The notes under the pieces were generated by a model, which saw nothing but the letters and a program-made list of their open reading frames with translations, ran no database searches and was not told the DNA's origin. Below, one piece after another: positions 1,735 to 18,889 of a stretch of 25,119 bases of DNA (position 1 is the first letter of the stretch; the number at the start of each line of letters is the position of its first letter). Source of the DNA: a virus (taxonomy: Duplodnaviria; Caudoviricetes); the IMG/VR virus record IMGVR_UViG_3300044452_000162, positions 1 through 25,119 of that record. The stretch is one strand, 5' to 3'. The position numbers and the translations under genes were made by a program.

Positions 1735-3708
1735 TTAAACTGAATTGATCGAAGGGGCTATTGATTGTGCCAGCAGGATGCCCCCGGCGGAATTTGGGTG
1801 TAAATTGTCAGATGTGTATTCAGATAAATTTATCAGATTTATCCCGCTGATGGAAAAGAGGTCGCAAACTGGGGTGCCAAAAAGCATGCAAACGTCTTTG
1901 ATAGCCTGCGCGTATTCAGGCAGCGTTGCCCCCACGCCGTTTGCTGCTGGATAAACGGGCTGGGATGAGAAAGCGCCGCGAATGAGTGGGGTGCTGAAGA
2001 TGATTCGGACTGTTGGCTTGAGCGTATACAGCGATTCTAAAGTTTGAAATACATCATTGTAAAAAGACTCTGAAACAGATCCGCTGAATGCATCGCTAAT
2101 GCTGCCTAGCTGCCGATTGCCACCATAGTCATTAGTCCCGCCAAATATGTGGATTATATCAGTATTCGCCAGATCGCCAGATGTCAGATCTGTGCCAGCA
2201 GCGTCTTTCGCCATGTCCCTTACGCTGCGACCCGATACCGCGAAGTTATTATCGGTAATCAATCCGGTTCTTAGGAGTGTTTCCGTGATGAAAAATCCAG
2301 CTACCGATATGCTGTCACCTACCCAGCTAACTTTTTTGCCTTGCCAAGGCCGGCTATTTCGATCGAAAGGCTTGAAACCTGCCAAAGGCGCCGCTTGCCG
2401 CAGCAACTGAAACCGGTCTATGAATGTGATATTAAAAATATGCAGGCGAACAAAGTGTGCGTTGCTCGGGGCTGTAAAGGCGGTGTTGTCTTGTACGGAA
2501 GTATTCGATGAGATGAATTCTCTATCGATGTCATAAAAACAAACCGCATTTGAATCATGGGATATAATTAATTGAGAACCTGGAAGAATATCAATGAAAT
2601 CAGTTGTAAAATAGTTACTGAATCCATAAGTGGACCCTGTAGTTGGGTTGATTGCCGTGTCAATCGCTGAGCGATCCGGGTCATGCGCATTAAAGTCTTG
2701 CGGCAAGCTGGCGAGGAGGGCTGTTTTTGATTTAATAAATGCCGAAGAAAGCGTTGCGGTGGGGCTTTGTGAATGCGGGGTGTACTGCACAGGAAGTGTA
2801 TCACTTGCTACCAGCATCAATTCATCGGATGCTGACAGTGGTGTTACATGCATTCGAATATAATACCCCCTTTCAGGAACAACGAACGAAACATCTTTGG
2901 TGATCGACATTTGCATGATGTGATTTTTATTTTCGTCGTAAAATGACATGGCGTTTGAGTCATGACTTGAAATCCATGACTCACCTGGATTTACCAGAAT
3001 GAATTCAGTGGTTATATAGTCTGAAAAACTGTACGTTGACCCGTTGGCAGCAAGCGCCGTGTTTTCCATCGCGTCATCAGGGTCGAAATAATTGAATTCA
3101 GAAGAAACGGTGCTTTTAATCCCGTTACGCACTATTTCCAAACGACTGCGCATAGCTGATGCTCGGTCATCTGGACTATACGAAACGAACTGATCGGGCA
3201 GTTCAGAGCCATTCACAAAAACCTGTTCAGTTAAGTCAGCATTTAAGGCTGAAAAGCGGATGTAGGTTGCATTTGCAGGTGCGACAACAGATCCGCCCGC
3301 GCTAACCCCTGCTACATAACTAATGAAATTTCTTAGATAATCATAAAAAGCAACATGCGCAACTTGGTTCGCAAATGAGTAATTTTCATTCGCGAAAATA
3401 AAAATAAATGGCGTCGCCTTCCATCCACTCTGGGAGGCAGGGTTGCCGTTTGAGAGAATATATGTATCATCAATCAATTGAGAGTCGTCTAATAAATTCT
3501 GCTGCTTCGGATAGCGATTTGATAAATCAAACGTGCGTCTGGTCACGGCTTCGTCGTGGATTGCTTTTGCGAGGGATGGCACGACGCCAGAATCGGTCGA
3601 TACGGTGTCCGTTTCGTCGCCATGCACCATTTCATGCAATAAATCAGCATCGGTGCTCACTTGCGTGGCTTTGGTCGTAATCGTATTGAGGTCATCTTGC
3701 AGGGTCAT
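1735..3708 (-). CDS. Putative receptor-binding protein/tailspike: N-terminal virion anchor, three repeated beta-rich modules, C-terminal SGNH/GDSL esterase
   Basis: Anchor motif LHEMVHGDETDTVSTDSGVVPSLAKAI; three ~85-130 aa repeats (T.FI...P, FYD....I, P..A.YIR); SGNH blocks WVGDSI, AVSG, GGTNDY, DNLHPN. Visibly more AT-rich than its neighbours. Confidence 0.8.
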   Translation of the reverse strand: MTLQDDLNTITTKATQVSTDADLLHEMVHGDETDTVSTDSGVVPSLAKAIHDEAVTRRTFDLSNRYPKQQNLLDDSQLIDDTYILSNGNPASQSGWKATPFIFIFANENYSFANQVAHVAFYDYLRNFISYVAGVSAGGSVVAPANATYIRFSALNADLTEQVFVNGSELPDQFVSYSPDDRASAMRSRLEIVRNGIKSTVSSEFNYFDPDDAMENTALAANGSTYSFSDYITTEFILVNPGESWISSHDSNAMSFYDENKNHIMQMSITKDVSFVVPERGYYIRMHVTPLSASDELMLVASDTLPVQYTPHSQSPTATLSSAFIKSKTALLASLPQDFNAHDPDRSAIDTAINPTTGSTYGFSNYFTTDFIDILPGSQLIISHDSNAVCFYDIDREFISSNTSVQDNTAFTAPSNAHFVRLHIFNITFIDRFQLLRQAAPLAGFKPFDRNSRPWQGKKVSWVGDSISVAGFFITETLLRTGLITDNNFAVSGRSVRDMAKDAAGTDLTSGDLANTDIIHIFGGTNDYGGNRQLGSISDAFSGSVSESFYNDVFQTLESLYTLKPTVRIIFSTPLIRGAFSSQPVYPAANGVGATLPEYAQAIKDVCMLFGTPVCDLFSISGINLINLSEYTSDNLHPNSAGGILLAQSIAPSINSV

Positions 3709-12163: not shown

Positions 12164-13674
12164 AGATTATTCCCTTGCGATGCCGGGGCCGCATCGTCGG
12201 CGTTGTGTTGCGTGAAGATCGCCAGCAGCAGCTGGTCCGGGCCAAGCGGTGGCAGTTGCTTCTCGATGCGGTCCTGCTGGGCCTCGGCCATTTCTTCCAG
12301 CACCTGGTCGTACACCTTGCCACGGCGGGCGCAGACTTCTTGCAGGCTGCTGATGCCGTACGCCACCTCGAGAATATCGGTCTTGACCGCTTCCAGGCGG
12401 TTGGCGGACCCCGTCACGTCCGGGCGCAATTCAACGGCTAACACCGCCTCCCGGCGGTCAGGATCGCTTGGCAGGCGTTTGCCTTCCAGCATCCACAAAT
12501 ACGGCGCCACGCGTTGCCAGGGCTCTTCGGCGATCAATTGGCCAATCTCATCCTGCACCGGACCAATCAGTTTCTCACTGCGCAATTGGTCGTCACGGCT
12601 GGCCGAAAAATTGACCCGCGCGTTGTCGCGGTCCAACCAGCGTTGGCTGGTCCGGGTGATGGCAGCCACATCGCCGCGGGTGGTATGGCGGAATTCGTGC
12701 ACCTTGGTTGACGGGCGCTCTGACTTGATCTGGTGAAAAGTTTCCCCGGCTTCGCCGTGAAAAATTGAGCCGATCGGCATTTCGGTGATTGGTTCGGCTC
12801 CCTCTTCGGTACCCATCATGTCGCTGGTCGTGAAGACTGATGGGGTATTGGCCACCGTGCCGGCGCGCAATTCATTGACTACCATCGTGCCGTCTTGGAA
12901 AATACGCTCGACGGCTGGGGCCAGGCCTGGCTCACCAACCGATTGCCCGGCCAGGCGTTCCTCGAACACATAGGTGATCCATTGCGCATCGACGCGCTCA
13001 CCGTCGCTGCCGGGCTCTTCAGGGTCGCTCAGGTGATAGGCCGCCGCGCGGCCCATGCGGTCCAGCTCCACCCCGCCGGCAAACGTGTGCCCCTTTGGCA
13101 CTTTCACGACTTCAGACGTCGATAGCCATTCCGCCGGCAAGGCGCGGATCGATACCGGCGGCAGGCCACGCTTGGCCTTGTCTGGATCCGCGACCCAGCG
13201 CCACAGCACACCGCCGGTGCGCGGCATCGATCGCGCGGCCTGGCGTTGCAGCGTCCACAAACTGCGGCCGGTCACGCTGGCAGTTTTGCACCAGCGGCGC
13301 CAGCGTTTCATGATCTTTTTCTTGAATTTCTTATCTTTTATGCCGACCGGCTGCACGTCGATCGAGCGGCCAATGAGTTCAGCGGTGAAGCCCTCAACCG
13401 CACCACGGCCATACGGCGTATTGCAATCCAGCTTGGCCCCCTGCGCCTGCAACTTGGCCAATGATGGCACCAGGTGCTGATCAGGTGTGCCGCGCCTGGC
13501 CTGCATCTCGGCCAGGATCTTCCGGCGGTTGTTGGTGGCATCATAGGTATCACCACCAACGCCCAGGGCCTCGCCCTTGTTCCAGCTATTGCCGACCGAT
13601 GCCCGGCGCCCCTTGCTGCGCATCTTGCGACCCAAGACAGTCTGATGACGATGTCGATAGCTGTGGCGTCCCAT
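12160..13674 (-). CDS. Portal protein, lambda family
   Basis: L..N.PY..GAV, GGVELDRMGR..AYH, RLAGQ..GEP.LAP, NFSASR, YGISS..EVCA.RG..Y..VL.E.A motifs; position after gpW. Confidence 0.92.
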   Translation of the reverse strand: MGRHSYRHRHQTVLGRKMRSKGRRASVGNSWNKGEALGVGGDTYDATNNRRKILAEMQARRGTPDQHLVPSLAKLQAQGAKLDCNTPYGRGAVEGFTAELIGRSIDVQPVGIKDKKFKKKIMKRWRRWCKTASVTGRSLWTLQRQAARSMPRTGGVLWRWVADPDKAKRGLPPVSIRALPAEWLSTSEVVKVPKGHTFAGGVELDRMGRAAAYHLSDPEEPGSDGERVDAQWITYVFEERLAGQSVGEPGLAPAVERIFQDGTMVVNELRAGTVANTPSVFTTSDMMGTEEGAEPITEMPIGSIFHGEAGETFHQIKSERPSTKVHEFRHTTRGDVAAITRTSQRWLDRDNARVNFSASRDDQLRSEKLIGPVQDEIGQLIAEEPWQRVAPYLWMLEGKRLPSDPDRREAVLAVELRPDVTGSANRLEAVKTDILEVAYGISSLQEVCARRGKVYDQVLEEMAEAQQDRIEKQLPPLGPDQLLLAIFTQHNADDAAPASQGNNL

Positions 13675-13895
13675 CAGATACCGCCAATCTGCGCCCGGCG
13701 GAAGGGCCCACCGTTTTGCGCGCGGCTGATCTGCTTCTCCAGCTGGCGCCGCTCGCGATACAACGTTGCAAGCTGGGCCCGCTCGGTCGACGCGCCATCT
13801 TCGTGACTGTATTTTTGGCCACCCGTCTCGACCCGCGCAATCGCGGTTTCGATATTGGCTAAACGTGTCTGTAGGACTTCAAGCGAAGCAGGCAT
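13674..13895 (-). CDS. Head-to-tail joining protein gpW-like
   Basis: L..RLA.IETAI..VETGGQ.YS...G....RA.L..LY.ERR.LE..I pattern; immediately before the portal gene. Confidence 0.8.
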   Translation of the reverse strand: MPASLEVLQTRLANIETAIARVETGGQKYSHEDGASTERAQLATLYRERRQLEKQISRAQNGGPFRRAQIGGI

Positions 13896-14071: not shown

Positions 14072-14308
14072 ATGTTGATCAATTGGAACGACCACAACCG
14101 CGCACACATCGCCAAGCACGGCGGTAGCGAAGCGTTGTTCGAACTGGTGCTGGCCAACAGCGATCAGTGGGTGCTTTCCGAGCCGCTCTATGGTCACACG
14201 GCCATTGCAACCATTGATGGGAAGGAATGGCAAGCAATTTTCATTTTCATCCATGACCTTCAGGAAGTCACCCCGATCACGATCTATCCAACAGAAAGAG
14301 GTGCTTAA
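14072..14308 (+). CDS. Type II toxin, BrnT/RelE-fold-like
   Basis: 78 aa, MLINWNDHNRAHIAKHGGS resembles the W...N..H..KHG.S start of BrnT-like toxins; C-terminal PITIYP strand; toxin-first order. Confidence 0.65.
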   Translation: MLINWNDHNRAHIAKHGGSEALFELVLANSDQWVLSEPLYGHTAIATIDGKEWQAIFIFIHDLQEVTPITIYPTERGA

Positions 14309-14309
14309 A

Positions 14310-14660
14310 ATGAAACATAAACTCGACGAAAAAACAGCTCGGAAAACAGCTCAGAAAATAGCTCACAAAATGAAAAACCTCACCGAGGAACAGATTGCTG
14401 CCAATCGGCGTGCCGCAGCACGCGTGCCGCGCAACCCTGATGGGTCCATCGACATGGAACAAGCCATTGCCGACGGTGAAGAAATGCGGCGTGAACACAT
14501 CGAGGCCCGCAAACGTGGCCGCCCTGTTGGCCCCCCCACCAAAGCCCGCAGCATCCGCCTGACCGTCGATCTCTGGGAACAAGCCGAAGAAAAAGCCCAA
14601 GCCAACGGCCAAAGCCTGAATGCCTGGGTCGCCGGCCTGGTGCAAAGATCAATCGGCTGA
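14310..14660 (+). CDS. Antitoxin with C-terminal ribbon-helix-helix (BrnA/HicB-like)
   Basis: ATG 14310 with SD AGAGGTG, 1 nt after the toxin stop; RGRP followed by SIRL..DLW......A...GQSLNAWV RHH pattern. Confidence 0.75.
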   Translation: MKHKLDEKTARKTAQKIAHKMKNLTEEQIAANRRAAARVPRNPDGSIDMEQAIADGEEMRREHIEARKRGRPVGPPTKARSIRLTVDLWEQAEEKAQANGQSLNAWVAGLVQRSIG

Positions 14661-14662
14661 CC

Positions 14663-14704
14663 GCCACCAGGTGGCTGCCCCGCTAACCCTTTCAAAGCGG
14701 GGCA
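14663..14704. terminator. GC-rich inverted repeats at the convergence of the TA operon and the minus-strand genes
   Basis: GCCACC-A-GGTGGC (14663-14675) and TGCCCCGCT-11nt-AGCGGGGCA (14676-14704); no clear U-tract. Confidence 0.4.
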
Positions 14705-14707
14705 ACA

Positions 14708-14726
14708 CCCAAACCAAGTGTTGGGC
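14708..14726 (+). other. attI-like simple recombination site
   Basis: CCCAAAC-CAAGT-GTTGGGC: degenerate L box, 5-bp spacer and GTTRRRY R box, the same geometry as attI1 (CCCTAAA-ACAAA-GTTRRRY); lies at the head of the attC-like array. Confidence 0.5.
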
Positions 14727-14735
14727 GGCACTGGT

Positions 14736-15023
14736 TTACGCAGGCATTTCCCCGTAAGCACTGCATTCTGGTTGCTCGCGGGGGTCGTACTCTTCCCAGT
14801 CGTCGCATAACTTATCTTCATCAGGGACTCTATCGTCTAGTGGTGTAAAGTCATTCTTCCAGAACACCCTCGGGACCAATTTCCCTATATCGTGCACAAG
14901 AATCCGCTGCAATGTCTCTGGGTTTTGCGCGCAATCTTCCTCGGTGTAAATTTTGGTCGGTTTGCCTGTGCGTATAATCCCGCTACGCATTGCACATCGA
15001 CGCTTTGCTGTTTCGTAGTCCAT
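14736..15023 (-). CDS. Cassette-borne hypothetical protein, weak resemblance to DUF2829/Tad2
   Basis: ATG 15023 with SD GAAGGAGA; 95 aa; M.Y.TA......SGIIR.G and P.ED.L.DDWE.Y termini. Confidence 0.55.
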   Translation of the reverse strand: MDYETAKRRCAMRSGIIRTGKPTKIYTEEDCAQNPETLQRILVHDIGKLVPRVFWKNDFTPLDDRVPDEDKLCDDWEEYDPREQPECSAYGEMPA

Positions 15024-15047
15024 AATTTTCTCCTTCGATTTCGCCCC

Positions 15048-15110
15048 ACCCAACAACGTGTTCAAGAAATCGGAGCCGCTAACGCGGCCCGCTTAACGCT
15101 GAGGTTGGGT
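15048..15110 (+). other. attC-like site A (63 bp)
   Basis: ACCCAAC-AACGT-GTTCAAG-AAATCGGAGCCGC-TAAC-GCGGCCCG-CTTAAC-GCTGAG-GTTGGGT: RYYYAAC/GTTRRRY cores, 5- and 6-bp spacers, extrahelical C at L'' position 4, second unpaired A, 4-nt bulge. Confidence 0.8.
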
Positions 15111-15466
15111 TACTTCTTGTTCTTACGACGCGTCTCGGCGTGTAGCTCGGCGTCGTATCGTAAATGGCAACGCTGGCACAGTGCGGCCAAGTTGGCGTGG
15201 TCGTTATTGTTGGTGTCGTGGTCAAGGTGCGCGATGGTAAGAACAACTCGGATTGGCTTGTTGTATAAACCAATGTCAAAACCGCGACATGTTTGATTGT
15301 CGTTGTCCTCGATATAGATATAATTTGCGCCATTAATTTTTGACCTGCGGATCATTTTATGATTTCTTACTCCGCAATTTTCGCAGCAATCGCCGGATCG
15401 CTTTAGTATTGCCGGACGAATCACTGTTTTCCAGTCGGTCGGGTATTTTGAATAATCGCAAGGCAT
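15110..15466 (-). CDS. HNH endonuclease (cassette-borne)
   Basis: DYSKYP.DW...IR..IL.R....CENCG and LTIAHLDH...NN...NL.ALCQRCH..YD; ATG 15466 with SD GAGG. Confidence 0.9.
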   Translation of the reverse strand: MPCDYSKYPTDWKTVIRPAILKRSGDCCENCGVRNHKMIRRSKINGANYIYIEDNDNQTCRGFDIGLYNKPIRVVLTIAHLDHDTNNNDHANLAALCQRCHLRYDAELHAETRRKNKK

Positions 15467-15493
15467 AATTTCCTCTGCTTTCCGATGGGCGTA

Positions 15494-15544
15494 ACCCAAC
15501 AAATGCGTGCAGGTGAGCAAGCCACCTGACGCTTGTGGTTGGGT
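15494..15544 (+). other. attC-like site B (51 bp, unusually short)
   Basis: ACCCAAC-AAATG-CGTGCAGG-TGAGCAAGCCA-CCTGACG-CTTGTG-GTTGGGT: 7/5/8...7/6/7 box layout, extra base at L'' position 4 and a second unpaired A. Confidence 0.75.
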
Positions 15545-15553
15545 GGCGCTGGG

Positions 15554-16033
15554 TTACTGGACCGCCGCTCGACCGTTCGCGTGCTCAAACGCCGCGGCGA
15601 CTGAATCGGTGATCAAGCGCTTGTTTTCATCAGGTGTATTCCGTGGACTGCATTGGCAGGTTGGCAAATCAGGGTATCCGTGCCATTTGCCATGGATGCC
15701 ATGCCAGCCATCTGACTCATGCAGCTCAATCAATGTTTTTGTGACCTGCTCCTGATCGCCTTTTACTCCGGCAAAAGCATGGCGATCAAACATAAAACAG
15801 CACTTCAATATCATTGGTTCATCATTGATTTTCTTTTGGGCATCTTGATATGAGTCAAACCCTAATTCACGGGCCACCGCATTCATGCAATCAATATGCT
15901 GCACCTGATCTGCCGAAATATGATCTTCCTCCACTAGATGATAATTAACGCGATTCAATGCGTCAATATCACCTGTTCTTGCCTGTTTCTTTAATCGTTT
16001 GGCTTGTTTTTTAATCATTGTTATCTGTGACAT
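15554..16033 (-). CDS. Hypothetical protein with N-terminal glyoxalase-superfamily-associated helical domain
   Basis: IKKQAKRLKK....NAVARELGFDSY pattern; ATG 16033 with SD AAGGA; AT-rich. Confidence 0.6.
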   Translation of the reverse strand: MSQITMIKKQAKRLKKQARTGDIDALNRVNYHLVEEDHISADQVQHIDCMNAVARELGFDSYQDAQKKINDEPMILKCCFMFDRHAFAGVKGDQEQVTKTLIELHESDGWHGIHGKWHGYPDLPTCQCSPRNTPDENKRLITDSVAAAFEHANGRAAVQ

Positions 16034-16643: not shown

Positions 16644-16862
16644 TCATGCGCTCAAGTAGAAAAACAGCCAAGCAATGGCACCTGCGAGGTACCGGGTGGC
16701 TGCAGGGTTGGCTGCGGGGATGGCGCGGGTTGGCGGCAGGTTGATTGGCCGGATTGGCCTCGGCGTGCGCACGCGGGCGCCGATTGGGCCAATGGGGCAT
16801 TGATTCCTGATATAAATCACCGGTTCTGGCGATAATGCATCCGTTTGCGGGGGCGTGCTCAT
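16644..16862 (-). CDS. Possible small Pro-rich protein with hydrophobic C-terminus
   Basis: ATGA overlap with the terL stop; low complexity, may be non-coding. Confidence 0.3.
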   Translation of the reverse strand: MSTPPQTDALSPEPVIYIRNQCPIGPIGARVRTPRPIRPINLPPTRAIPAANPAATRYLAGAIAWLFFYLSA

Positions 16863-18889
16863 GCCGCCCCCCCGACGCGGCCAATAATGCCGGATCGACG
16901 TTGGTGTTGGGTGGTATCAAACCAGCCGCGTATATTCACCACGGCCATTTGTTGCACTTCACAATCAAACCAATGGTTGTCGGTGCGTACGTGCATGGTG
17001 CCTTTTTCGTCTTCCCACTCGCGCGGGCGCCAGATCATGCGGAGCTGGCGACGGCCACGGGTGGAAACCATCTCTTGGACTCGCTCTTCTGAGGTCAACG
17101 ATTCAGTATAAAATTCCGGGGCATCGGGTGGGATAAACCAGGCCTGCGGGGCAGCCTGCATCGCGGCCGACAGGTAATCGCGGTGGCTGTGGGCATTGAA
17201 AAACCAAACCCGTTTCAGGCCGGCCAGCTTGGCGCGGTTTTGTGGGCTTGATTTTATTTCTGACCACGGGTTGTCAGGGGCCATGGTGCCTGATCCGGCA
17301 ATCGATAAGCGGCGCTGGGGTTGTTTGGCGCACCATTGCCGGATGAATTTTTGCATCGGACCGTTGGCGCTGTCCATGGCGCTCAGGTCAATGCCGCGCG
17401 GTTGACCCCCCATCACCCATTCACGTTCCAGCAGCTGATCGCAGGCGTCAAAGCCGTTGACGTGACCGGCCTCGACCAAGTAGGATTCGCCGCTTTGTAG
17501 CCAGGCACGAACCACGTACGGGAACCATGATCGCAGCGGATCGATACCTTGCTGGTCCAGGGTCGCCAAGACGCGCCATGGCACCACCGGGCATTCGCTG
17601 TGCCGGTACGTCAGGCCCTCGGGCGTGGCCGGCAGCTGCACGTTTTCGACAGCTTCCTGATCGATGCCGCCGGCGCTGGCAATGTACGGGTCGCCGTCCC
17701 AGCCATTCACAAAAGCTTCGCGATCAGATTCACCGGCGCCGTGCGCCTCGATGCGTTTAGATACATACCGCGAAAGCGTGATAAATGCGGAATACAAACT
17801 ATTCATATGGCCACTCCGGTTACGGGCCCGCAATGGCGCCACGTGGTCTGGATTGATTTGATGTTGCCGATCGTATTCCACTACCGGGCGCCAGCTGCCG
17901 CCGGCCTTGTGTTGATCGTCAGCCGTCCAGATTCCGGCCAGCCAGCCGCCTGATTCAGAATACCACGGCACCACACAGGCCAGGTGCACGGCCTGGCGTA
18001 TTTCCTGCGTGGTTAAAGGCGTGCTGCAGGTTGGACATTTCCAACGGCCCAGATCTTCGTTCTCGATGGCGTCCGGATCGGTGCATTTCTCCAAAGCCAT
18101 CAGGCAATCAGGTTGCAGCCAGTGGTGGGCGCCGCAGTGCGGGCAGGCAACGTGCAGCCGTTCATGCGTACCCCGGCACAAGCGCGACCAGCCGTGATTG
18201 CTGACCGTGGTGGGCGTAGTCACGCCAAGAATAAATCGAGAATGTGGGAAGCCTTTTTGACGGTCTTCGACCAAGGCAATCGGGTTGCCTTCCCCCTGGC
18301 AGTCGATCGGGAAGGCGTCGAATTCGTCCAGTGCGACCAAGGGCAGGTCGTACGATCGCAGGTCTTGGGCGGAGTTACCGACCATCCAATGCAAGTCGCA
18401 CGTTGATAGCTTCCAGACTTTCACGCCCAGGCGGCGCTCAACCTCGGTCTGGCCCCCTGGTAATAATTCCCGCAGGCGCGGGGTTAATTCAAACATCGGT
18501 TGCAAGCGCGTGGTCTGCGCCTTGCGCAGGTCTTCGTTGCGCTGCAGGACCATGCCCATCGATCGCGGGCGCACGGCTGCGGTCCAACCGACCAATGGCT
18601 GCACCAAGCCTTGCGTTTTGCCCAACTGATTGGCGCAAACGTTGTAGATTGATTCAACCAGGTGCGCATGCGGATCATGGTCCAGCGGCTGGCCACTGAT
18701 GCGGGCCTGCGCGATGTTGAGCCAATGTTTCCAGTAAGGTGTTAAATCAGGATTGTACGGCGCCGGGCCCGATCCCCGGCTAATTTTCAAATGATCCCCC
18801 AGCCAATCATTGATGTTAGCACCGCGATCTTCGCGGACCCTGGCCTGCATGTCGCGGGCCTCATTGAAAATTGCCTTGGCAATGCTCAC
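16859..18889 (-). CDS. terL: Terminase large subunit, lambda GpA family
   Basis: YNPDLTPY Q-motif, Walker A ANQLGKT, Walker B VALDEFDAF, GVTTPT, CPHCG...CPTC zinc motif, C-terminal nuclease with LDQQ, MDS.NG, DNHWFDCEV. Confidence 0.95.
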   Translation of the reverse strand: MSIAKAIFNEARDMQARVREDRGANINDWLGDHLKISRGSGPAPYNPDLTPYWKHWLNIAQARISGQPLDHDPHAHLVESIYNVCANQLGKTQGLVQPLVGWTAAVRPRSMGMVLQRNEDLRKAQTTRLQPMFELTPRLRELLPGGQTEVERRLGVKVWKLSTCDLHWMVGNSAQDLRSYDLPLVALDEFDAFPIDCQGEGNPIALVEDRQKGFPHSRFILGVTTPTTVSNHGWSRLCRGTHERLHVACPHCGAHHWLQPDCLMALEKCTDPDAIENEDLGRWKCPTCSTPLTTQEIRQAVHLACVVPWYSESGGWLAGIWTADDQHKAGGSWRPVVEYDRQHQINPDHVAPLRARNRSGHMNSLYSAFITLSRYVSKRIEAHGAGESDREAFVNGWDGDPYIASAGGIDQEAVENVQLPATPEGLTYRHSECPVVPWRVLATLDQQGIDPLRSWFPYVVRAWLQSGESYLVEAGHVNGFDACDQLLEREWVMGGQPRGIDLSAMDSANGPMQKFIRQWCAKQPQRRLSIAGSGTMAPDNPWSEIKSSPQNRAKLAGLKRVWFFNAHSHRDYLSAAMQAAPQAWFIPPDAPEFYTESLTSEERVQEMVSTRGRRQLRMIWRPREWEDEKGTMHVRTDNHWFDCEVQQMAVVNIRGWFDTTQHQRRSGIIGRVGGAA

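Follow-up and report, generated by a model that had tools for sequence, protein, structure and literature searches.

A phage-borne integron-type array in which both cassette genes face away from their attC sites

Integron cassettes are taught as units in which a gene is followed by its attC site and is read from a promoter at attI. The presence of two neighbouring phage cassettes with genes pointing the other way raises the question whether such an array is a genuine integron-type element, and how its cassettes are exchanged and read. The DNA analyzed here (the window) comprises 25,119 bases, the full length of one IMG/VR virus record, for which a completeness of 36% was estimated. The genes coding for the primase, a ParB-like protein, the terminase, the head-tail adaptor, the portal, the capsid and the tape-measure protein are all located on the minus strand. 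The cassette array lies between the terminase large subunit gene (16859-18889, minus strand), which is upstream of the array on the minus strand, and the head-tail adaptor gene (13674-13895, minus strand), which forms the left flank of the insert. A two-gene unit on the plus strand (14072-14660) converges on the array from the attI side. Its second gene displayed weak HicB and Arc-like matches, and we take the pair to be toxin-antitoxin-like. Our main reading, to which we assign a probability of about 0.78, is that the locus is a two-cassette integron-type array with genes facing away from their own attC sites, which likely gains and loses cassettes at a docking site by bottom-strand recombination and likely depends on a host IntI acting in trans.

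The attC sites were located with a structural detector scoring R boxes, spacers, an L pair with one unpaired base and the folding energy. Two sites were obtained, attC1 at 15048-15110 (63 nt) and attC2 at 15494-15544 (51 nt). The R'' and R' boxes of both sites are perfectly complementary (ACCCAAC/GTTGGGT; 7/7 each). A 5-nt spacer follows R'', the L''/L' pair contains one unpaired L'' base, and a 6-nt spacer precedes R'. Complementary R'' (RYYYAAC) and R' (GTTRRRY) boxes, L boxes with an extrahelical base, spacers of 5 and 5-10 nt and a stable hairpin are thus all present, as is characteristic of attC. Folding of attC1 and attC2 was far better than that of shuffled sequences on both strands (z -3.4 to -3.7). 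In 100 dinucleotide shuffles of the window we obtained a mean of 0.23 sites, two sites in a single shuffle and perfect R boxes in none, compared with two sites with perfect R boxes in the real window. The detector is conservative, as published TJE1 sites were missed. With two attC sites in close proximity and no intI nearby, the array in this 36% complete record constitutes a CALIN; as intI beside attI is absent from the window, it does not represent a complete integron. Searches with TIGR02249 and PF00589 revealed neither an integron integrase nor another tyrosine recombinase in the window, which is 36% complete; the rest of the phage beyond this record may encode a recombinase of its own. 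Rfam searches gave 0 matches in the window.

Unpaired bases near L'' have been reported to steer the integrase to the bottom strand and thereby to set cassette orientation (Nivina et al. 2016, PMC5027507). In attC1, the unpaired base is a C on the top strand, corresponding to a G on the bottom strand, and geometry as well as unpaired base are those of the attCaadA7 control in Table S3 of Qi et al. (PMC9892861). In attC2, it is a G on the top strand, corresponding to a C on the bottom strand. This site is nearly symmetrical, with detector L scores of 7 for the plus and 6 for the minus strand, and its strand call is therefore weaker. A preliminary description of this DNA had assigned the attC top strand to the plus strand, and box and spacer geometry together with the unpaired base bear this out, again with the weaker call for attC2.

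Cassette 1 extends from 14721 to 15104 (plus strand, 384 bp) and cassette 2 from 15105 to 15538 (plus strand, 434 bp). The ends of cassette 2 show a 10-bp complementarity to each other. The span 14721-15538 singled out in the preliminary description corresponds exactly to these two cassettes. Cassette 1 carries a gene for a 95-aa protein (gene 1; 14736-15023, minus strand), likely a remote Tad2-fold protein, which is inverted relative to attC1. Cassette 2 carries a gene for a 118-aa HNH endonuclease (15110-15466, minus strand), which is inverted relative to attC2. Shine-Dalgarno-like motifs are located at 15030-15035 (gene 1) and 15470-15475 (HNH gene), and the ATGs of the two genes lie 24 and 27 nt from R'', respectively. 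Coordinates and motifs confirmed that both cassette genes are on the minus strand and that each attC lies upstream of the ribosome binding site of its gene. The proposed overlap of the HNH stop codon with R' of attC1 was found as well, since this codon (15110-15112) covers the last base of R'. The longest plus-strand open reading frames inside cassettes 1 and 2 comprise only 29 and 63 aa. A canonical cassette contains an open reading frame on the attC top strand that ends at R''; here, both genes are on the bottom strand instead. The GC content of the cassettes (48-52%) differs from that of the flanking genes (59-62%). Since inversion of a whole cassette cannot flip a gene against its own attC, the orientation would have arisen when the cassettes were made.

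To the right of the array lies gene 3 (15554-16033, minus strand, 159 aa, 45% GC), for which no usable family or fold match was obtained. The 21 nt to the right of the attC2 crossover (15539-15559) match the first 21 nt of cassette 1 (14721-14741) at 16 positions, and a stop codon occurs at the same offset in both. From this resemblance, gene 3 may derive from an ancient cassette whose attC was lost.

At the opposite end of the array we found a lone attI-like simple site on the plus strand (14708-14726), which consists of a 7-nt L box, a 5-nt spacer and the R box GTTGGGC, with the crossover between 14720 and 14721. We take its layout to resemble that of attI1. It does not fold as an attC (z 0.1-0.45), and a degenerate attC of the neighbouring gene pair at 14682-14726 was ruled out because this region did not fold. 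A GC-rich hairpin without a U-tract on either strand is located just to the left (14676-14704). For information on cassette junctions, contigs of eight of the ten listed public runs, a list that contains no RNA run, were compared with the region; among the runs, X1-X6 are possibly the source of the window and not independent of it. One 151-nt contig from run X2 (record 3; depth 2, one mismatch) agrees with the window between 14691 and 14725. Beyond this point it continues into other sequence, in which the R box is retained and a minus-strand stop codon overlaps R'. We read this single contig of depth 2 as a different first cassette at the docking site. Record 4 of the same run, a variant also found in X4 and X6, represents a diverged HNH cassette starting at the crossover base G15104. 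It shows 17 differences over 15104-15259 (156 nt), and its middle part is replaced (202 nt instead of 184 nt). The 24-nt flank of record 4 is identical to the lone docking site of a second phage (records G051-G053), and only these 24 nt link the two. Record 7 of X2, paired with record 4 by depth (6.4 and 6.3), leaves the window at 15502, two bases after R'' of attC2, and enters a different attC body. This switch of attC body in the HNH variant could reflect an occasional top-strand crossover or a gene that was packaged twice. Judged from these contigs, the HNH cassette family is common to the window phage and to the docking site of an unrelated phage.

The cassette junctions at the exact crossover base share just 6-7 bases. 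In two distinct sets of contigs, the junctions coincide precisely with G|TT of a docking site, which supports the earlier suggestion that the lone site at 14720 is attI-like. The site 14708-14726 likely acts as a docking site, with receipt of a cassette documented by one low-depth contig. An excision joint of cassette 1 or 2 was absent from the contigs of the eight runs, an assembly product that drops rare variants, and a close relative of the phage with an empty docking site was not found. In run X4, record 4 matches 15070-15108 and belongs to another attC that shares the central hairpin of attC1 and has different arms and flanks. This site points to a larger local cassette pool.

Record G052 of the second phage has a length of 46 kb, is 100% complete and showed no match to IntI or PF00589. 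DNA stretches common to G051-G053 and the window are of attC size only. All three records carry another first cassette, and the HNH gene was matched in 0 of 3. The two docking sites agree at 23 of 33 ungapped positions, a value within the range of chance matches selected by pattern (16-24 of 33). The G052 array uses the same R boxes as the window and contains four attC sites on one strand. It comprises one cassette without a clear open reading frame, one canonical gene and two inverted cassettes, one of which codes for a DNA methylase. The canonical gene (738-1091 of locus L313) is on the same attC strand as the inverted genes and is associated with a 172-nt attC. Two such 172-nt sites are present (534-705 and 1091-1262 of L313), the first of which closes a 471-bp cassette with no open reading frame above 43 aa. 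As canonical and inverted genes occur on one attC strand, the G052 array serves as an internal calibration of the strand call. Other phages carry the array at positions different from that in the window: G052 has it upstream of the terminase genes, and a provirus, G007, upstream of intI. The second docking site (150-233 of L313) shows two direct repeats of a GTTAGCG-type motif, and just past it follows a hairpin whose U-tract is on the gene strand; the window has one motif of this type in its hairpin, on the other strand. Among 50 viral matches to the docking-site motif, an attC array was detected only in the three records of the second phage, along with one weak single site elsewhere. The motif had two matches in metagenomes, neither with an attC or an integrase. 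A scan with the pattern TAACCCAACAA gave detector matches in 4 of 119 loci, three of them from the second phage.

To place the two arrays in a wider context, we surveyed gene orientation at attC sites of phages and bacteria. Pattern scans covered 13 and at least 130 viral loci and at least 121 bacterial genome loci, with 80 loci per larger scan retrieved with full flanks. Before orientation was counted, duplicates were discarded, as were sites lying 250 nt or less from a locus end. A symmetrical test recorded the strand of a ribosome binding site-backed open reading frame of at least 45 aa starting within 60 nt of the attC. Among the matches listed, the 205 viral sites comprised 119 inverted, 3 canonical, 4 both and 79 uncalled cases, versus 7, 24, 2 and 113 of 146 bacterial genome sites, in a comparison that draws mostly on different patterns and in which most bacterial sites were left uncalled by the test. 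These counts support the proposal that inverted cassettes are a phage-specific class. Counted by non-overlapping loci among the matches listed, inverted outnumbered canonical ones by 66 to 2 in the viral set (89 loci), and the relation was 5 to 19 in the bacterial set (77 loci; Fisher p 3e-13). When an equal pattern was applied to both sets, the listed matches gave 6 inverted, 3 canonical and 5 unclear of 14 viral sites and 15, 100 and 41 of 156 bacterial sites.

An open reading frame-length test gave a weaker contrast for the viral TAAC set, with 80 inverted, 30 canonical and 80 unclear sites among the 190 matches listed. Applied to delimited cassettes, the length test yielded 65 inverted, 28 canonical and 32 unclear of 125 viral cassettes versus 3, 60 and 21 of 84 in genomes among the matches listed, with a choice of regions biased to canonical ones. 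As in the window, start codons were located 18-29 nt from the site in 77 of the 114 genes followed among the matches listed. At least 900 nt past the last detected attC were available in 37 of 68 inverted viral loci listed. Among these 37, the genes past the last attC, some of them possibly undetected cassettes, read in the direction of the cassette genes in 28 loci, in the opposite direction in 3 and unclearly in 6. Inversion is the rule in the phage arrays listed, though not universal in phages, as TJE1 is canonical. The exact R-box pair of the window was absent from all bacterial genome loci among the matches listed, and sequence searches with the portal, the terminase and gene 3 indicated no host. 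The seven bacterial sites called inverted are located in L174, L195, L215, L224, L225 and L273.

We searched for the integrase in 50 phage records. They correspond to 48 of the 143 survey loci, the choice of which was guided mostly by inverted arrays, together with the loci L001 and L016 of two cargo homologues. IntI above the cut-off was present in one of the 50 records and in one of the 12 near-complete records. The positive record, the provirus G007, encodes a true IntI (425 bits). The intI gene lies immediately downstream of two inverted cassettes, with which it shares the reading direction; this arrangement places attI at the gene-distal end. The cassettes of G007 (L285 1480-2454 / L028 697-2566) code for a DNA methylase and a radical-SAM-like protein, and an attI-like site lies 31 nt before the intI start. 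The plus-strand gene pair of the window at 14072-14660 faces the array where G007 carries intI; intI itself is not found there.

The protein of cassette 2 is a phage HNH endonuclease with a full-length profile match to phrog_1571 (E 5e-25, residues 1-117). Its closest homologue (55%, L001) has, as judged by eye, an inverted attC half-site upstream. This half-site precedes the HNH gene at 3925-3980 of L001, and the remainder of the site is replaced by a GGTC tandem run. A canonical cassette at L001 was considered and rejected by eye, because the spacer and the unpaired base place the R''/L'' half on the gene strand. A homologue of gene 1 (57%, L016) resides in another inverted array, being one of three viral relatives. 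Before this homologue, a 39-nt hairpin with R-like ends (3950-3988 of L016) is perhaps a shrunken attC. No attC was detected beside the gene in 14 of 15 viral HNH relatives and in two of three gene 1 relatives, and the cargo therefore occurs mostly outside cassettes.

The gene 1 protein belongs to a family of 72 representatives and had no match in the GenBank phage set. Sequence searches named no family for it: none of 14 members matched PF11195 at E <=1, and PDB profiles returned no Tad2 chain. Sub-threshold PF11195 matches occurred in two of 71 distant members (E 0.0096 and 0.081). Language-model features (ESM) placed the protein near Tad2-like clusters (0.89). Structure models were obtained with a pLDDT of 85 for the gene 1 protein and of 92 for a 67-aa homologue. 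In a Foldseek search of the PDB, the best 13 rows for the gene 1 model all belonged to the Tad2 family, with weak scores (best E 0.18, TM-score 0.35). For the 67-aa homologue the Tad2 family also came first, again weakly (E 0.54, TM-score about 0.5), and the best BFVD match of the gene 1 model was Tad2-like (E 0.03). VIA comparisons gave Tad2-family Z scores of 4.6 and 4.5 for the gene 1 model (54 residues, 3.0 A; next 2.8) and of 4.4 and 4.4 for the short homologue (next 2.6). Like the immune-signal sponges Tad2/AcrIIA7 (PF11195; PMC10680739; bioRxiv 2025.08.24.671296), as far as these members are documented there, the protein displays an N-terminal helix, a conserved Arg and a C-terminal D-W motif. 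An insert of about 29 residues, absent from the short homologues, corresponds to the optional insert after the first strands of long Tad2 forms. In contrast to Tad2 members, the protein lacks a significant Pfam or sequence match, and the W-N-G stretch with which HgmTad2 binds gcADPR (PMC10680739) is not evident after its conserved Arg. Weak yet concordant scores make a Tad2 fold of the modelled protein probable; sponge activity is conceivable, with the odds somewhat against it.

All these observations can be combined into a model of the array. A host integron integrase would likely act in trans on the phage attC sites and the docking site, and cassettes would enter and leave the docking site by ordinary bottom-strand recombination with crossover at R'. 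The bottom strand is favoured because there are two hairpins for two genes and a lone site after the last gene, and because both junction polymorphisms fall at G|TT; the 10-bp complementarity of the cassette 2 ends fits either recombining strand. The cargo would be phage genes of the ordinary kind that became packaged in cassettes, and one of these genes may code for an anti-defence sponge. Transcription would start from a phage promoter at the far end, either that of the terminase operon or a site in gene 3, and pass through genes and hairpins towards attI. Due to their orientation, no sense reading is expected from a Pc on the attI side. A sigma-70-like site inside gene 3 (15966-15938, minus strand, 10 of 12 matches) points into the array and is a candidate Pc-like promoter. 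The promoter and terminator scan found 6 sites compared with 2.3 expected and no minus-strand promoter-like site inside the cassettes. The terminase transcript may extend into the cassettes, as the preliminary description proposed. The site in gene 3 could drive them instead; as a sponge would be useful before late transcription, this internal site seems favoured. Reading from an attI-distal promoter implies that new arrivals come last. The preliminary description had drawn the same consequence for the minus-strand message, and our analysis supports it.

Three other explanations were considered. Recombination of the opposite strand, with crossover in R'', would let each gene travel with the hairpin behind it, would make the cassettes canonical in function and would call for a phage recombinase of reversed strand preference. 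The near-identity of the HNH variant up to R''+2, followed by another attC body, agrees with this explanation, as do the score of attC2 on both strands and the end complementarity, which is compatible with either model. However, two independent junction polymorphisms are at G|TT of lone gene-distal sites, no full attC follows the last gene, the canonical gene of G052 is on the same attC strand, a true IntI is found at the distal end in G007, and G052 gave no tyrosine recombinase match. We regard recombination of the opposite strand as unlikely. Alternatively, the array might be a piece of a host chromosomal integron with inverted, self-promoted cassettes that was captured by chance and no longer functions in the phage. 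The capture of integron fragments by phages is documented (Qi et al. 2023, PMC9892861). The cassettes have a GC content below that of the flanking genes, and a toxin-antitoxin-like pair adjoins the array. Such a capture is nevertheless quite improbable, given that the cargo families are present in phage contigs, that inverted genes prevail in viral contigs and are scarce in bacterial genomes among the matches listed, that another cassette was seen at the same docking site (X2 record 3) and that the cassettes lack a minus-strand promoter-like site.

The hairpins might also be transcription or translation elements, such as terminators or processing sites, which resemble attC and at which genes move by homologous recombination. 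Their position 24-27 nt before each start codon and the weak terminator score of attC1 on the minus strand would suit such a role. It is hard to reconcile with the full R/L-box geometry including the unpaired base of the control, with junctions at the exact crossover base sharing only 6-7 bases and with the linkage of IntI to such an array in G007, and we consider it highly improbable. Returning to bottom-strand exchange at the docking site, the inversion itself invites some speculation. It might keep phage cargo silent under a host Pc and captured host cassettes silent in the phage message, as either would be antisense to the transcript that it enters, and the canonical gene near attI in G052 might fit the capture of host-type cassettes. 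A further speculative consequence is that the recombining strand becomes the non-template strand, with a possible gain in turnover. For V. cholerae, relocation of attC bottom strands to the lagging-strand template has been reported to increase excision from <7e-5 to 3e-2 (PMC13108822). Again as a speculation, this geometry would apply to inverted genes co-oriented with replication. A still broader scenario, which we hold tentatively and think more doubtful than probable, is that unrelated phages of one community trade a private pool of inverted counter-defence cassettes (Tad2-fold sponge, DNA methylases) at their own attI via host IntI, with inversion as a firewall that silences phage cargo in host integrons and host defence cassettes in the phage.

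Phage CALINs and the activity of IntI1 on their attC sites have been reported (Qi et al. 2023, PMC9892861). As described there, such CALINs comprise at least two attC sites within 3 kb in a phage without intI, and the window is alike in this respect. TJE1 from that study and the window both have a lone GTT site behind a hairpin at the start of the array, and the DNA methylase cargo of related arrays recurs in the CALINs of Qi et al. In contrast, TJE1 is canonical, with the tested bottom strands on the minus strand and the genes on the plus strand, whereas both genes of the window are on the bottom strand. Genes inverted against attC are not described in the available sections of Qi et al. 2023 (PMC9892861). 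Literature searches covering few subscription journals found no paper on inverted phage cassettes, including the available parts of PMC8876359, PMC11551772 and PMC13676570. Clusters of attC in phages are thus already published, and gene inversion is the new element, for which the same searches, with few subscription journals covered, yielded no paper. With classical cassettes of class 1 integrons and the Vibrio SCI, as presented in PMC5027507, the array shares the R''/L''/L'/R' boxes, the unpaired L'' base, the G|TT crossover and, as is likely, insertion at a lone attI-like site. Unlike those cassettes (PMC5027507), the genes read away from attC and towards attI, and no intI is located beside the site. 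In further contrast to the classical arrangement (PMC5027507), the promoter must sit distal to attI, and new arrivals would come last, not first.

In sum, the locus represents a genuine CALIN of a phage, with inverted cassettes and a likely docking site. It adds junction evidence of exchange, a complete attC-type relative without a recombinase and a candidate remote Tad2 family. To our knowledge, there is no agreed account of the first acquisition of an attC by a gene. The phage pool demonstrates that a hairpin can come to lie before its gene when a cassette forms, and every model of cassette genesis has to account for this. Bacterial integrons have been reported to store anti-phage genes (bioRxiv 2024.07.02.601686). 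If phages swap counter-defence genes by the same recombinase, inverted cassettes would point to places in which new anti-defence proteins may be sought, and the remote Tad2-fold family found here is a candidate for such a protein. The locus lends itself to tests, as its sites are short, its docking site is defined and junction variants occur naturally. Elsewhere in the window, a tail-region gene of low GC content (46%) on the minus strand (1735-3708) codes for a 657-aa protein with repeats and, as judged by eye, an esterase-type-looking end.
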